This document shows, in pieces, positions 5,312 to 15,217 of a stretch of DNA of 44,513 bases. The stretch's first letter is position 1; every line of letters starts with the position of its first letter. Below the pieces are notes generated by a model. The model had not been told where the DNA came from. It made no database searches and was given only the letters and a program-made list of their open reading frames with translations. The position numbers were made by a program, and so were the translations under genes. This DNA is from a virus. Its lineage: Duplodnaviria > Heunggongvirae > Uroviricota > Caudoviricetes. Location of the stretch: the IMG/VR virus record IMGVR_UViG_2703718788_000013; one strand, 5' to 3'.

Positions 5312-5369
5312 AAAAAGGGCGGCAGAGCAGTCACGGAGTAAAACTGATACCGCCAAACGCCACCAGAAA
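5312..5369 (-). ncRNA. dicF: DicF-like small RNA (ftsZ translation inhibitor family) with intrinsic terminator
   Basis: Minus-strand sequence TTTTCTGGTGGCGTTTGGCGGTATCAGTTTTACTCCGTGACTGCTCTGCCGCCCTTTTT matches the remembered E. coli DicF sequence with one mismatch; GGCGG...CCGCC stem then U-run; no ORF in the region. Confidence 0.7.
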
Positions 5370-6987: not shown

Positions 6988-7662
6988 TCAGTCTAAATAT
7001 TGATGTATTTGTGAAACTTTACCTTTAATAGTGTAACCACCATTCAGTTCAATGGGTTTGTAAAGCGGATTCAGTGACAGCAGATAGATGTTTGGTCCGT
7101 CAATCGCAACTTTTTTTAGTGTTACGTTCGGCGTTCCTTCCAATTGGATTAAGATTATTTTTCCCACCAGTTCTCTAATGTTACTTGAGCATGGCGTGAT
7201 CAGCACGGTAGATCCGTCGGGGATGGTTGGGAGGCCGTTAGAGTTCGTCATCGCATCTCCCTCAACGCGCAATAAAAAAGAGTTTTCAGCGGTTTTTGTC
7301 ATGACATCAACCCAATTCTTAATACCAGGAATCTCGGTTACTGGGCAACTCATATCCCAATAACCAGCCTGTTCCCACGTTAAAACGGGCAACCGGGCGA
7401 TGTTGTCACTAATGTAAAGGTACTGATTCAGACGCAGATCGTCGGTTTTATCGTGACCATCCTTTCCATAAAGAATCCATTCAGGAGATTTGGAAAGCAA
7501 TTTTGACAGCAGATGCAAATTCTCACCGTCAGGTTTTGAAGAGCCATTTTCCCATTTTGTTACGGATACGCGAGATATGCCGATTGCTTTCGCAACCTGC
7601 TGTTGAGTTAGTCCAACGTCTTTTCGACGATTCCGAATACGTTCGCTGATAGTGTTTTTCAT
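6988..7662 (-). CDS. cI: CI-like repressor (HTH_XRE N-terminal domain plus S24 LexA-like C-terminal domain)
   Basis: ORF-track 6988..7761; C-terminal region aligns by eye with lambda CI (VEGDAMT versus VEGNSMT, TLKKV versus TFKKL, QAG linker); start placed at ATG 7662 to leave a 91-bp operator region before cro (ATG 7704 is an alternative). Confidence 0.8.
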   Translation of the reverse strand: MKNTISERIRNRRKDVGLTQQQVAKAIGISRVSVTKWENGSSKPDGENLHLLSKLLSKSPEWILYGKDGHDKTDDLRLNQYLYISDNIARLPVLTWEQAGYWDMSCPVTEIPGIKNWVDVMTKTAENSFLLRVEGDAMTNSNGLPTIPDGSTVLITPCSSNIRELVGKIILIQLEGTPNVTLKKVAIDGPNIYLLSLNPLYKPIELNGGYTIKGKVSQIHQYLD

Positions 7663-7724
7663 GTAACCAATGTTACCACCAAGTGATGTTACTGTGGTTG
7701 ACATCTTTATGTAACTATTGTTAC
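7663..7724. promoter_or_regulatory. OR-like operator region with GTAAC-N4-GTTAC palindromes between cI and cro
   Basis: GTAACCAATGTTAC at 7663-7676 and GTAACTATTGTTAC at 7711-7724, plus a GTTAC half-site near 7688; divergent cI/cro starts flank it. Confidence 0.55.
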
Positions 7725-7753
7725 CCTTTTGTTCGAAATAACAGGAGAGTTTT

Positions 7754-7969
7754 ATGTTCAAAGATGATGTTCTGCGCTATTTCAAAAAAAAGCGACTAGT
7801 AGCTGAGGCTCTTGGAATTTCACATGTGGCTGTTGTGCGGTGGAAAGCAGTTATTCCCAAACTTCGCGCAATGGAGCTGGATGAAATTACTAACGGTGAA
7901 TTGAAATACAATCCAGAACTTTACAAGAAGCAGGATAGCACCTCGAACGAAGGAAAGAATGATTCATGA
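7754..7969 (+). CDS. cro: Cro-like small HTH regulator
   Basis: 71-aa ORF divergent from cI, AGGAG ribosome-binding site at 7743-7749; HTH-like segment RLVAEALGISHVAVVRWK. Confidence 0.7.
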   Translation: MFKDDVLRYFKKKRLVAEALGISHVAVVRWKAVIPKLRAMELDEITNGELKYNPELYKKQDSTSNEGKNDS

Positions 7970-8391
7970 AAATCAAGCATGAACACATCCGCATGGCGAT
8001 GAATGCCTGGGCGCATCCGGACGGCGAAAAAATACCGGCTGCGAAAATTACCAAAGCGTATTTCGAACTGGGAATGACGTTCCCGGAACTGTATGACGAC
8101 AGCCATCCGGAAGCTCTGGCTCGCAATACTCAGAAAATTTTCCGCTGGGTAGAGAAAGACACCCCTGATGCAGTTGAAAAAATTCAGGCGTTGTTACCAG
8201 CGATCGAAAAGGCAATGCCACCTTTGCTGGTGGCCAGAATGCGCAGCCACAGTTCAGCTTATTTTCGGGAGCTGGTGGAAACGCGGGAGCGATTGGTGAG
8301 AGACGCTGATGATTTTGTCGCAGTGGCAATCGCCGGTTTCAATCAGATGAACCGTGGTGGCCCGGCAGGAAATGCTGTGGCAGTACATTGA
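7966..8391 (+). CDS. YdaT-like protein (CII-position regulator)
   Basis: 141-aa ORF translationally coupled to cro (ATGA overlap); N-terminus MKIKHEHIRMAMNAW resembles Rac YdaT as remembered. Confidence 0.5.
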   Translation: MKIKHEHIRMAMNAWAHPDGEKIPAAKITKAYFELGMTFPELYDDSHPEALARNTQKIFRWVEKDTPDAVEKIQALLPAIEKAMPPLLVARMRSHSSAYFRELVETRERLVRDADDFVAVAIAGFNQMNRGGPAGNAVAVH

Positions 8392-8462
8392 CTGACAATA
8401 GCCATATCGAATCGCTTCCGGCAACTCGTGAGTAAAAAGATTCGGTATCAGAAGAGGTGAGT

Positions 8463-9533
8463 ATGGCTAACGCCTGGCTCAGATTATGGCATGACATGCC
8501 GAATGACCCTAAGTGGCGAACAATTGCCAGGGTGTCAGGGCAGCCAATTGCAACAGTGATGGCAGTGTATATCCACCTCCTGGTGAGCGCGTCACGAAAT
8601 GTCACGCGAGGTCACATTGATGTCACGACAGAAGATTTGGCAAGTGCGCTCGACGTGACAGAAGAGGTAATTGATTCAATTTTGCAGACGATGCAGGGGC
8701 GGGTACTTGATGGTGATTTAATCACTGGATGGGAAAAACGCCAGGTGCTGAAAGAGGACAACGGCAATATTTCGCAAACCGCAAAATCTCCTGCAGAGCG
8801 CAAGAGGGCGCAGCGAGAGAGGGAAAGAAAGCGGGAACAAAATGGCGATTGTCACGGCGCGTCACGAAATGTCACGCACATGTCACGACGAGTCACGACA
8901 GATAAAGATACAGATAAAGATACAGATAAAGAAGATCAAAACACTATGGTCCATGGCGTAAAAAACGCCACGAACCAGGCAGGGGATGTTCAGTCCGTCA
9001 ATCCTGGTCAGCCAGCAGGCACGACACCGGAAGCCGATTCAGCGTATGCGCTGAAAGCCGATTCGGGCGCTGTGCAGCAGGTGATGACCGCAAGGCCGGA
9101 GCAATCACTCCAACTGCAGCAGCCTGAAGCCGATTCCGCCATTCAGCGGGAGGCCGAGCGGGTAGCCCCGGAAAACACCGGGCAGCCTGTGGGACGAGTG
9201 GATTATCCAGAAGTGTTCGAACAGGTCTGGCGGGAATACCCGTTGCGTGCCGGGGCAAACCCGAAGAAATCCGCTTTCAGTGCCTGGAAGGCCAGATTAC
9301 GCGAGGGGGTGCCACCAGAGGCCATGCTAGATGGTGTGAGGCGTTACGCAAGATACCTGGCGGCTACCGGGAAAACGGGAACGGAATTTGTTCAGCGAGC
9401 GACGACGTTTTTTGGACCGGACCGGAATTTTGAAAACCCCTGGTTGCTCCCGGTAAGCGGTACGAACAACCAGCGTTGCGTGAATCACATTTCTGAACCA
9501 GATACCGAAATTCCACCGGGCTTCAGGGGGTAA
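8463..9533 (+). CDS. Replication initiation protein (O-like), with origin repeats inside the coding sequence
   Basis: 356 aa from ATG 8463 with GAAGAGG upstream; positioned after the cro/cII-like genes; contains two iteron clusters and an AT-rich repeat. Confidence 0.65.
   Translation: MANAWLRLWHDMPNDPKWRTIARVSGQPIATVMAVYIHLLVSASRNVTRGHIDVTTEDLASALDVTEEVIDSILQTMQGRVLDGDLITGWEKRQVLKEDNGNISQTAKSPAERKRAQRERERKREQNGDCHGASRNVTHMSRRVTTDKDTDKDTDKEDQNTMVHGVKNATNQAGDVQSVNPGQPAGTTPEADSAYALKADSGAVQQVMTARPEQSLQLQQPEADSAIQREAERVAPENTGQPVGRVDYPEVFEQVWREYPLRAGANPKKSAFSAWKARLREGVPPEAMLDGVRRYARYLAATGKTGTEFVQRATTFFGPDRNFENPWLLPVSGTNNQRCVNHISEPDTEIPPGFRG
8591..8934. repeat. Putative replication origin: two clusters of GTCACG iterons plus three tandem 11-bp GATAAAGATAC repeats
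   Basis: GTCAC(G/A) at 8591, 8601, 8611, 8623 and at 8851, 8861, 8871, 8882, 8892 with about 10-bp periodicity; tandem repeat at 8901-8934. Confidence 0.6.
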
Positions 9534-9573
9534 GTGTTTATTTCAGGTCACGAGGTAATTTTCAGGAGGACTT

Positions 9574-9996
9574 GTGGCAAAAGTTTTTACACAAGAAGAG
9601 CGAGAAAAAATTAAAGGGCAGGTTGTTGAACTCGTACGCCAGAGTGGGCGTGAGACGTTACGGCAACTGGAAGTCAAGACAGGTGCGACAAGATATCTGA
9701 TGAGCGTTCTCGCAAGAGAGCTGGTTGCCAGCGGCGATGTATACAACTCTGGTTACGGGTTATTCCCGTCTGAACAGGCGCGTAAGGACTGGCAAAATGC
9801 CCGTAAAAAGCTCTCAAGGGCAAAGCTGAAGAAACCATCTGCGGTTGATCCGGACCTTATCTGGTCATTACCTGATGGAGAAATACGTCGTTACGACAGG
9901 CGTCATAATATAATTTGTACTGAGTGTCGTAAAAGCGAAGTTATGCAGCGCATATTGTCGTTTTATCAGGGGGATGTTCGGTATTTATTGAAGTGA
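9574..9996 (+). CDS. Hypothetical 140-aa protein
   Basis: GTG start at 9574 with AGGAGG 5 nt upstream; occupies the position where lambda carries the helicase loader. Confidence 0.55.
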   Translation: MAKVFTQEEREKIKGQVVELVRQSGRETLRQLEVKTGATRYLMSVLARELVASGDVYNSGYGLFPSEQARKDWQNARKKLSRAKLKKPSAVDPDLIWSLPDGEIRRYDRRHNIICTECRKSEVMQRILSFYQGDVRYLLK

Positions 9997-10238
9997 CGAG
10001 ATTAAAATGCATTAGTTAAGATGTGAATTGACATTTTGTGGCACAGGATAGAGCTAGCGTGGTTGTCCGCTTTGTGCCAAAAGCGGACGTTAAGCTTACC
10101 AACTCATATTTTAAGGTCATAGGTGCGTATAAACGAAGTACCACGCTTAGGAGTAGTGAATTTACAGACTTACAAAATCATTTATTTCAGGCCAATTTAT
10201 GTAATGGCATAATCAGGTTGGTGAAAGAGAGGGCTGAA

Positions 10239-10823
10239 ATGGATAAAAAATCTAAAAATCAGATAGTAGATAGCGATATTGCACGTTTATTGCTTAAACA
10301 TAGGAAGGCTCGCAATTTGACTGTAACAGAGCTTGCTCAACGATCGGGCGTCAGTCAGGCCATGATTAGTAAGATTGAACGAGGCATCTCCAGCCCTAGT
10401 GCAACTATCCTTAGCCGCCTGGCCAACGCCATGAATGTAACGCTATCTAAACTCTTTGCAGAGCTTGAGCAACATCAGAATTCTCTGGTTCGTTTTGCTC
10501 ATCAGCAACAGCACTGGACGGATGAGCAATCAGGCATCACTCGTTGGTCTTTGTCTCCTGCGGGGGCATGCCCGGAACTGATCAAAGTTGAAATTCCTGC
10601 AATGGGTGAGTTGACGATACCCGCCTCCGCAAATGAGCATCTTTCCGGGCAAACGCTTTGGGTGATGAGTGGTAGCCTTGATTTTCGAGTCAAAAATCAG
10701 ACCCATCATTTACGTGCCGGTGACTGTCTTGCCCTTACCTTTGCAAGCGAGTACCAAATGAGCAATCCAGATAGTGAGCAGAGCTGTTCTTACATCGTGG
10801 CTTTTAGCCAAAAAAATCAATGA
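10239..10823 (+). CDS. Transcriptional regulator, HTH_XRE N-terminus plus cupin-like C-terminal domain
   Basis: ORF-track 10038..10823; ATG at 10239 (MDKKSKNQ); HTH segment LTVTELAQRSGVSQAMISKIERG. Confidence 0.7.
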   Translation: MDKKSKNQIVDSDIARLLLKHRKARNLTVTELAQRSGVSQAMISKIERGISSPSATILSRLANAMNVTLSKLFAELEQHQNSLVRFAHQQQHWTDEQSGITRWSLSPAGACPELIKVEIPAMGELTIPASANEHLSGQTLWVMSGSLDFRVKNQTHHLRAGDCLALTFASEYQMSNPDSEQSCSYIVAFSQKNQ

Positions 10824-10843: not shown

Positions 10844-11287
10844 TTACATGTTATTGGCCATTCTCAGATGCAACAAGGGGTATGGCCTTCCCTGATTATC
10901 CAGATCGGAACGCCCTGATACCTGAAACCCCATATGCTGATAAAACCCTACAGCCTGCTGGTTTTGTTCATTTACATCAACGCTTAGCTCTGGATGCAGC
11001 GCCAGTGCATGAGAGATCAAACGTTTTCCGACGCCAAGTCCGCGAGCAGAGCCTGCTACAAAAAGTGCCTCCAGATGGCCCTTATGCAAAAACATAAATC
11101 CTAGCGGTTGGTCATCCTGATTTGTTGCAACCCATACAGGAGTTTCTGAGAAAAAGCCGACAACTTCTTTTTCGATTTCTTGTCGGTCATGACCTGTAAG
11201 AAAGTCGTGGGTAGCATCCACTGAACTCTTCCAGATTTGTATGATCTCATCTGCTTCAGATGGTCGTGACATTCTGATATCTAACAT
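10844..11287 (-). CDS. GNAT-family N-acetyltransferase
   Basis: 147-aa ORF with acetyl-CoA binding-like segment (ARGLGVGKRLI); convergent with the HTH-cupin gene. Confidence 0.7.
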   Translation of the reverse strand: MLDIRMSRPSEADEIIQIWKSSVDATHDFLTGHDRQEIEKEVVGFFSETPVWVATNQDDQPLGFMFLHKGHLEALFVAGSARGLGVGKRLISHALALHPELSVDVNEQNQQAVGFYQHMGFQVSGRSDLDNQGRPYPLLHLRMANNM

Positions 11288-11775: not shown

Positions 11776-11986
11776 TTTCATATTGGCGAGGTAACGGTAG
11801 TTAAGTAGAATGGCTGTGGGTGCTTGAGGCTATCTGCCTCGGGCATGAACACCAACGGCAGATAGAGAAAAGCCCCAGTTAACATTACGCGTCCTGCAAG
11901 ACGCTTAACATTAATCTGAGGCCAATTTCATGCTAGACACATGTAGGTTAGCCTCTTACGTGCCGAAAGGCAAGGAGAAGCAGGCT

Positions 11987-12142
11987 ATGAAGCAGCAAAA
12001 GGCGATGTTAATCGCCCTGATCGTCATCTGTTTAACCGTCATAGTGACGGCACTGGTAACGAGGAAAGACCTCTGCGAGGTACGAATCCGAACCGACCAG
12101 ACGGAGGTCGCTGTCTTCACAGCTTACGAACCTGAGGAGTAA
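11987..12142 (+). CDS. hok: Hok/Gef-family type I toxin
   Basis: 51-aa product MKQQKAMLIALIVICLTVIVTALVTRKDLCEVRIRTDQTEVAVFTAYEPEE, near-identical to remembered HokD/RelF; AAGGAGAAG ribosome-binding site; 8-bp hairpin at 12151-12170. Confidence 0.85.
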   Translation: MKQQKAMLIALIVICLTVIVTALVTRKDLCEVRIRTDQTEVAVFTAYEPEE

Positions 12143-14907: not shown

Positions 14908-14983
14908 GGCCCTTTAGCTCAGTGGTGAGAGCGAGCGACTCATAATCGCCAGGTCGCTGGTTCAAATCCAGCAAGGGCCACCA
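14908..14983 (+). tRNA. tRNA with CAT anticodon, ileX-like (tRNA-Ile2 or Met)
   Basis: 76-nt cloverleaf, acceptor GGCCCTT/AAGGGCC, anticodon loop CTCATAA, CCA end; resembles remembered E. coli ileX. Confidence 0.8.
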
Positions 14984-14984
14984 A

Positions 14985-15061
14985 CCGCCACTAGCTCATC
15001 AGGAAAGAGCGTCAACCCTTTAAGTTGAGTGTGCGAGGTTCGAGTCCCCGGTGGCGGTCCA
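14985..15061 (+). tRNA. tRNA-like gene, apparent anticodon TTT (Lys-like), non-canonical features
   Basis: Acceptor CCGCCAC/GTGGCGG, anticodon stem TCAAC/GTTGA, loop CCTTTAA (C at position 33), T-loop TTCGAGT, CCA end; A-C mismatch in T-stem. Confidence 0.55.
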
Positions 15062-15063
15062 GT

Positions 15064-15139
<76 letters not shown>

Positions 15140-15142
15140 TAT

Positions 15143-15217
<75 letters not shown>

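Follow-up and report, generated by a model that had tools for sequence, protein, structure and literature searches.

A probable lambda-type replication origin within the initiator gene of a lambdoid Escherichia coli prophage

The window analysed here is the whole 44,513-nucleotide stretch of viral DNA held as IMG/VR record IMGVR_UViG_2703718788_000013, and the element in question lies within a gene on its + strand (8463–9533) that encodes a replication initiator of 356 amino acids (aa). Two arrays of short direct repeats (iterons) are contained in the coding sequence of this gene, the second being followed by an A-rich tandem repeat. With a probability of roughly 0.8, these are considered to be the site at which a lambdoid E. 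coli prophage begins replication, an origin of the lambda type embedded in the gene for the prophage's own initiator. This reading is drawn from sequence comparison. The origin is of a known kind, and the initiator belongs to a family that is widespread and uncharacterised. No description of a GTCACG iteron origin, of this family or of its bipartite layout was found in the literature, and the Eru classification papers on the replication regions of Shiga toxin (Stx) phages do not cover this origin.

Iteron arrays of the initiator gene

A motif scan identified four GTCAC(G/A) hexamers on the + strand in cluster 1 (8591–8627; copies at 8591, 8601, 8611 and 8622, that at 8611 being GTCACA) and five GTCACG hexamers on the same strand in cluster 2 (8851–8897; copies at 8851, 8861, 8871, 8882 and 8892). 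Successive copies are spaced by 10, 10 and 11 bp in cluster 1 and by 10, 10, 11 and 10 bp in cluster 2, and the starts of the two clusters are 260 bp apart. An earlier note on this DNA, made from the letters alone, had described nine such repeats in two clusters about 260 bp apart, phased at about 10 bp and embedded in a replication gene; the scan agrees with this description, and all of the copies fall inside the initiator gene. The conserved iteron unit is a 6-bp core with a weak T at position -1, its flanks are variable, and both arrays are in direct orientation. Over the window as a whole GTCACR shows no enrichment, with 49 matches compared to 42.4 +/- 6.1 in shuffled sequences. Ten of these 49 matches are packed into 307 bp, for which the expectation is about 0.34 (Poisson estimate, ~4e-12). 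The first 600 nt of the gene had a phased-pentamer score of 9, while 200 shuffles averaged 2.0 and reached 4 at most. Each of the three reading frames is used by some of the hexamers (GCG TCA CGA, AAT GTC ACG and GGT CAC ATT), and the repeat is therefore a property of the DNA and not of the peptide. Cluster 1 codes for a loop of the N-terminal domain (N-domain) of the protein (aa 43–56, ASRNVTRGHIDVT), where residues 46–52 have a predicted local distance difference test score (pLDDT) below 50 in an AlphaFold2 (AF2) model. Cluster 2 lies within the disordered linker (aa 130–145) and is present in nearly all relatives.

A lone inverted copy of the iteron was identified on the - strand at 8654–8659 (GAC GTG ACA on the + strand). 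GTGAC occurs at the same position in 19 of 23 ungapped GTCACG-class sequences, and all valine codons there are GTG. An extra + strand copy of GTCACG (9547–9552) is located in the 40-bp gap between the stop codon of the initiator gene and the DUF977 gene that follows it; its conservation is uninformative because the only relatives sharing this region are ~97% identical. In some relatives, among them an Escherichia albertii gene (L087, gene nt 129–181) and P0111, cluster 1 is longer by two iterons owing to an in-frame insertion (peptide ...NVTTCHGVSLRGH...), and iteron number therefore varies naturally. In a further relative, P0169, both clusters encode one and the same 13-aa peptide (VTRGNAGVTHGNA), suggesting that the arrays have undergone gene conversion with each other.

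Conservation of the iterons

The distribution of the arrays was assessed in a scan of one genome per species, which gave 63 related loci; these belong to the gamma-, beta- and alpha-proteobacteria and to a small number of further phyla. The two-cluster layout was found in 42 of the 63. Hexamers fall into four classes, namely GTCACG (26 loci), GTAACG, CGAACG/GAACGC and GCAACG. Each locus always has the same class in both clusters, and lineages switch both together. Three to five copies are present in cluster 2 of all 24 GTCACG-class genes, and iteron sequences hardly vary among 66 close relatives.

Codon use at conserved residues was compared among 23 ungapped GTCACG-class genes from different genera, which share 63–100% aa identity. 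Codon entropy was 0.13 bits where the third base lies inside an iteron and 1.41 bits elsewhere (Mann-Whitney p 1.3e-4, a value that is indicative and not a true probability because the sequences are related), and flanking synonymous sites look saturated. Examples of the frozen codons are V47 (GTC, 23/23), T48 (ACG, 23/23), G50 (GGT, 23/23), H51 (CAC, 22/22) and S44 (TCA, 22/23), while R49, standing between frozen codons, uses CGA, CGC, CGT and CGG freely. Judged by codon use among these genes, the comparison shows the iterons to be under purifying selection at the level of the DNA. The linker peptide QCHxxSRNVTLDKD is conserved across genera although its pLDDT in the AF2 model is ~30, as is expected if the DNA, and not the protein, is the constrained object.

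The initiator is a mosaic. Its N-terminal part (aa 1–138) shares 69.5% identity with a protein of a Pseudomonas phage and 38–47% with proteins of a Ralstonia phage and of an uncultured phage, while its C-terminal half is common to replication proteins of POCJ13, SfV, ST64B and Stx phages, which possess other N-domains. The gene of Pseudomonas phage phita81A has GTCACG at gene positions 129, 139, 149 and 160 and again at 388–418, and that of Ralstonia phage Firinga has GCAACG at 130–161 and 401–431. CGAACG is found in the same two places in the uncultured phage, in MW202785 and in many beta- and alpha-proteobacterial loci, and GTAACG at the same two positions in three loci designated L152–L154. 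No iteron arrays were found in POCJ13 gp16, which has the same C-domain and a different N-domain. In this distribution the repeats travel with the N-domain, and the hexamer class follows the N-domain lineage.

The A-rich repeat and flanking elements

Cluster 2 is directly followed by an A-rich tandem repeat on the + strand (8898–8940), the proposed DNA-unwinding element, which is composed of 2.9 copies of ACAGATAAAGAT and then GAAGATCAAAA and is translated as DKDTDKDTDKEDQ. The copies of ACAGATAAAGAT span 8898–8932 with 100% matches at a period of 12 bp, equal to four codons. The period had earlier been read as 11 bp, which was an error; the translation of the repeat as a DKDTDKDTDK linker, proposed at the same time, is right (aa 147–156). 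This tract is the least stable 40-mer of 8300–9700, is placed at the 99.7th percentile of the whole window, and has a GC minimum of 0.33 with a strong excess of A over T on the + strand. In all 24 GTCACG-class genes cluster 2 is followed by (A/C)(C/T)AGATAAAGATA(A/C)AGA..., a tract of the AGATAAAGATAAAGA type with an AT content of 0.60–0.82. The other hexamer classes have GAA- or GAT-rich purine tracts in the same place.

Just 5' of cluster 2 there is a purine-rich tract on the + strand (AAGAGGGCGCAGCGAGAGAGGGAAAGAAAGCGGGAACAAA, 8802–8841), coding for KRAQRERERKREQ, which is part of a basic helix of the protein. Its purine fraction of 0.875 is the top 40-mer value of the whole window, its AT skew reaches +0.76, and the basic helix that it encodes (RKRAQRERERKRE) is invariant.

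A scan for terminators and palindromes identified an imperfect 13-bp inverted repeat with a 5-nt loop (TGGTCCATGGCGT AAAAA ACGCCACGAACCA) at 8947–8977, beginning fifteen bases past the tandem repeat. Its DNA fold has an energy of -8.7 kcal/mol (z -2.2). It is part of the C-half module and is retained in POCJ13 and L152–L154. Two pair changes in the palindrome are compensated on the opposite arm, with alteration of the encoded amino acids (V/E and N/I), in a small number of sequences. Lambda ori likewise possesses a palindrome after the AT-rich tract, and that at 8947–8977 may be a third element of the origin. Scans for sigma-70 promoters and for terminators gave results at chance level, with the single terminator-like match being this palindrome on the minus strand.

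The initiator protein and its DnaT-like C-terminal part

The initiator gene was identified from its open reading frame, from matches to PHROG and to phage coding sequences, and from the AF2 model. Its product matches phrog_3729 'replication initiation protein' over 356 of 356 positions (E 1e-253), the same 1071-nt coding sequence is annotated in phages Tritos and Evi, and close relatives are named 'phage replisome organizer' in RefSeq. The protein can be divided into an N-domain (aa 1–90), a basic helix (110–126), a disordered linker (127–244), a helical C-domain (245–320) and a disordered tail. The AF2 model (mean pLDDT 56; 66–91 in the folded parts) shows a helical N-domain with a beta hairpin (aa 2–88), a helix at 110–126, disorder at 127–244, a helical C-domain at 250–316 and a disordered tail. 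The N-domain is a putative winged helix that may resemble the N-terminal domain of DnaD. The full-length protein has no match to any Pfam family at E <= 0.01, and so none to Phage_rep_O or DUF1376; searched as two halves, it gave Phage_rep_org_N and HTH_Crp_2, both sub-threshold. PF09681 scored 16.0 bits (cutoff 23.3, E 0.013), with aa 5–123 aligned to positions 1–119 of the 121 of the model, and TIGR01714 scored 15.4 bits against a cutoff of 49.8, also sub-threshold (E 0.013–0.016 for the two models). A PDB search using the N-domain profile found nothing meaningful, and a PDB sequence search using the whole protein found DnaT-tail matches and one designed repeat protein, with no others.

The C-terminal part of the protein (aa 274–356; 9282–9530, + strand) resembles the host primosomal protein DnaT and aligns to residues 106–178 of it. 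Its tail (ISEPDTEIPPGFRG) is near-identical to that of DnaT. Matches to the DnaT chains 6aep, 2ru8 and 9zbt of the PDB were obtained with phmmer, hhalign of the C-domain profile against DnaT 106–178 gave a probability of 88.8% (E 2.5e-6), and BLASTP against DnaT of E. coli K-12 gave 15 of 25 residues identical (E 3e-7). The DnaT tail was the sole match in NCBIfam, where the DnaT equivalog NF002770 scored 18.2 bits against a cutoff of 201 over aa 333–356. PF17948 has no match in the initiator, and DnaT was absent from the best 50 and best 60 listed fold-search matches. The last 21 residues of the initiator (QRCVNHISEPDTEIPPGFRG) are near-identical to those of E. coli DnaT, and the helices preceding them align to the C-terminal bundle of DnaT that binds single-stranded DNA (ssDNA). 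The two proteins differ in that the initiator has no acidic linker and is fused to a proposed sequence-specific origin-binding domain. The C-domain of DnaT has been described to form filaments on ssDNA (PMC4132743, PMC13377028).

The tail motif (S/Q)xPDxxIPxGF(R/K)G, located at 9474–9530 in the window, was also identified in L098, L109, L150, P0033 and P0039. The phage initiators that end in it have C-domains of at least three unrelated types. Of eight cases examined, six have the tail-bearing initiator beside a dnaC-like gene, an arrangement that mirrors the host dnaT-dnaC operon; dnaT of E. coli is paired with dnaC just as relatives of the initiator are paired with a dnaC-like gene.

Absence of a loader gene and distribution of the module

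No P- or DnaC-like loader and no helicase is encoded downstream of the initiator gene, as had already been remarked. The next gene, in the position where relatives have a DnaC-like loader, is a DUF977/LygF/Ren-like gene (9574–9996, + strand; Pfam DUF977, E 4e-29; phrog_142), and cargo genes come after it. In 52 loci where the N-domain module occurs elsewhere, the next gene is lambda-P-like (10), DnaB-like (7), DnaC-like (4) or encodes a Toprim protein (2). L152–L154 share the N- and C-domain architecture of the initiator at 47–48% identity, with GTAACG iterons, and all three possess an IstB/DnaC-like (IstB_IS21) gene directly downstream, at the position of the DUF977 gene. A DnaC-like gene is also found downstream in POCJ13 (gp16-gp17) and in the Rac prophage (YdaU-YdaV). 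As these architectural relatives have a DnaC-like loader gene, the lineage of the window has lost that gene, and the most likely consequence is direct use of the host DnaB-DnaC complex. Borrowing of host DnaB-DnaC by the loader-less lineage is the simplest reading of these gene contents and is probably correct.

Phage Evi, an isolated coliphage (PMC10910852), carries the module at 97% identity, and no helicase, loader or primase is annotated in its 40 kb. Phage Tritos has the same layout as the window. Among 5426 complete E. coli genomes, 1647 (about 30%) have the initiator gene intact, and most listed copies are labelled 'hypothetical protein' in RefSeq.

Comparison with known origins

The central part of gene O of phage lambda contains iterons and an AT-rich tract (PMC7466680), and the earlier note had recognised in the present element the architecture of lambda ori inside O. 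This holds for the layout. As in lambda ori and the origins of lambdoid Stx phages, cluster 2 and the A-rich tract, at aa 130–159 of 356, are placed mid-gene in the segment that joins a DNA-binding N-domain to a C-domain, and as in lambda transcription runs through an array of sites and then into an A/T-rich tract that is translated as a linker rich in K, D, T and E. The gene likewise belongs to a pR operon, in which it comes after cro and cII-like genes (PMC7466680). The likeness does not extend to the components. The protein of the window has no sequence homology to O, its C-domain is DnaT-like and not P-binding, and no P gene is present. In lambda the iterons measure 19 bp, are imperfect inverted repeats and are bound by dimers (PMC7466680), whereas those of the window are 6-bp cores in one orientation at a pitch of 10–11 bp, and lambda has no counterpart to the array inside the N-domain coding region.

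Comparison with ydaU of the Rac prophage of E. coli K-12, which had been put forward as a check, gave a mixed result. The design is the same, with ydaU having its own repeats and its product ending in a DnaT-like tail; its N-domain is unrelated, its repeats are others and GTCACG is absent. In ydaU (L150, 2263–2640) direct repeats occur in the parts that encode the N-domain and the linker. AAnCAGATGTTCAA is found four times in the linker at 2472–2563, with two related copies, GCTGATGTT(C/G)AA, upstream at 2263 and 2348; the repeats are followed by AATAAAGATACAGATAAAGATC, and YdaU ends in the DnaT-like tail VSLPDSAIPPGFRG. The YdaU-YdaV pair occupies the same genomic slot, after ydaS/ydaT-like genes, with a DUF977 gene downstream. 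YdaU differs in possessing a DUF1376 N-domain and a C-domain of another type, and in having the DnaC-like YdaV next to it. In BLASTP against K-12 YdaU the match to the initiator was confined to tail and linker.

Replisome organizers of Gram-positive systems (SPP1 G38P with oriL, and the rep genes of lactococcal P335-type phages) possess an N-terminal DNA-binding domain and have binding repeats and an AT-rich tract inside their own gene. They differ from the present family, which occurs in Proteobacteria and matches PF09681 and TIGR01714 below threshold. Iteron plasmids (P1 with incC and incA, F and R6K) and the origins of Staphylococcus aureus pathogenicity islands (SaPIs) also have several short repeats of one orientation, spaced at helical pitch and arranged as two sets apart from each other, beside an AT-rich region. 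In these the repeats are mostly intergenic and are 17–22 bp long (6–8 bp in SaPIs), whereas both sets of the window are translated within the initiator.

Proposed mechanism

In the proposed scheme, the early rightward promoter would transcribe cro, the cII-like gene and the initiator gene, and the initiator would thus be made. Its putative winged-helix N-domain, together with the adjacent basic helix, would then bind cooperatively to the iterons, which lie on the same face of the DNA. The linker array beside the A-rich tract would form the core nucleoprotein complex, with the upstream array, 260 bp away, acting as an auxiliary or looping site. The resulting strain would open the GATAAAGATA tract, and the DnaT-like C-domain and tail would bind to the single strand thus exposed and recruit the helicase.

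A bolder proposal, which we put forward tentatively and hold to be rather less likely than its negation, is that the initiator is a one-protein replication module. It would combine an origin-specific winged helix, a DnaT-like ssDNA-binding domain and the DnaT tail, and would act as a DnaT at the phage origin, handing host DnaB-DnaC onto the opened A-rich tract without a phage loader. If this were true, the portable SEPDxxIPPGFRG tail would be the element that contacts DnaC/DnaB or PriA; this would bear on how DnaT recruits the helicase and would point away from the DnaT N-domain. Of all the threads of this analysis, the most interesting is the occurrence of a DnaT-like domain and tail on an initiator that lacks a loader.

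Alternative explanations

A number of observations weigh against an origin operated in this way by the initiator. About 12 further loci of the 63 have the linker cluster alone and no cluster 1, and the statistical support from the codon test is limited by relatedness, as stated above. In the N-domain, the canonical position of a recognition helix (candidate aa 67–77) is acidic. For the DnaT-like part, homology outside the tail is of moderate strength. Truncation of the DnaT tail lowers ssDNA affinity and cooperativity (PMC4132743). A structure paper of 2026 suggested the DnaT N-domain as the recruiter of DnaB/DnaC (PMC13377028), and this domain is absent from the initiator.

The arrays may instead be control or incompatibility sites, serving in titration, handcuffing, autoregulation or exclusion of related phages, with the true start of replication elsewhere. 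The presence of two separated arrays, the absence of cluster 1 from about 12 relatives and the fact that exclusion can come from cloned phage origins are in keeping with this, and extra iteron sets serve copy control in the P1 and F plasmids. It is nevertheless considered unlikely for the element as a whole. Cluster 2 abuts a conserved A-rich tract of low stability, the hallmark of a site of strand opening. Near the replication genes no second candidate for an origin was seen, and the linker position matches that of lambda (PMC7466680). For cluster 1 alone the control-site reading may be correct. A role for another protein at the arrays (the cII-like or DUF977 neighbour, or a host factor), or an action in RNA through mRNA structure or translation, is improbable. 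A DUF977 helix-turn-helix gene does adjoin and the palindrome at 8947–8977 could act in RNA, but the hexamer class follows the N-domain lineage while neighbours and C-domains swap freely, and the element contains no DnaA box. Direct repeats at a pitch of 10–11 bp have no RNA-pairing logic, and no Rfam match was found in 8300–9700.

A constraint on the protein, whereby the SRNVT/VT peptide and the low-complexity acidic/lysine linker are kept and the DNA has no function of its own, has hardly any probability left. ASRNVT and DKDT peptides do recur, and the loop motif AS...RG is kept even in relatives that have no cluster 1. Against this, the hexamers encode SR, VT, GH, CH and MSR in three frames, four- and six-fold degenerate codons are fixed inside hexamers only, lineages alter the peptide to alter the hexamer in both clusters at once, and cluster 2 lies in a predicted disordered region. 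This explanation was rejected on the frame and codon evidence. It is also very improbable, if slightly less so, that the origin is a dead relic in a loader-less lineage that cannot replicate. In favour of such a relic, all three architectural homologues examined have an IstB/DnaC-like gene downstream where the window has none; however, the isolated coliphage Evi has the same loader-less module at 97% identity (PMC10910852), and the module is also present in Tritos and several induced phages. The intact gene in 1647 of 5426 genomes and the nearly invariant iterons of the 66 close relatives likewise speak for a working element. The relic explanation was rejected on the evidence of phage Evi.

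Implications of an origin within the initiator gene

Identification of the element as a lambda-type origin would permit correct annotation of a replication module that is very common in E. coli prophages. The existence of four iteron classes predicts which prophages are mutually compatible or exclusive. These natural hexamer classes would also offer a ready system in which to study a joint switch of specificity by an initiator and some ten sites inside its gene. As a compact origin cassette of one gene the module is a possible tool, and the loader-less variant with its DnaT-like tail could provide a genetic handle on DnaT-type engagement of DnaB-DnaC. The gene is further an example of a DNA element dictating protein sequence, with a loop of a structured domain and a 'disordered' linker both conserved as proposed binding sites.

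Genomic surroundings

Upstream of the initiator gene are a P22-Cro-like gene (7754–7969), a YdaT/cII-like gene (7966–8391) and a divergent S24 repressor gene (6988–7761). An XRE-HTH/cupin regulator gene (10038–10823, + strand) and a GNAT acetyltransferase gene (10844–11287, - strand) were identified between the replication genes and a hok/sok locus; they look like cargo because the same pair is annotated in phage Evi. The hok/sok locus (11818–12142, + strand) consists of a sok antitoxin RNA (115 bits) and a Hok-family toxin reading frame (11930–12142). Like the DicF small RNA found at 5317–5368 (- strand, 76 bits), it is typical of Qin/Rac-like prophages. A tRNA-Ser(CGA) gene by the left end (892–981) is possibly the integration site, and a cluster of four tRNA genes (Met, Lys, Thr and Gly; 14908–15217) is located in the late-regulatory region of the prophage.

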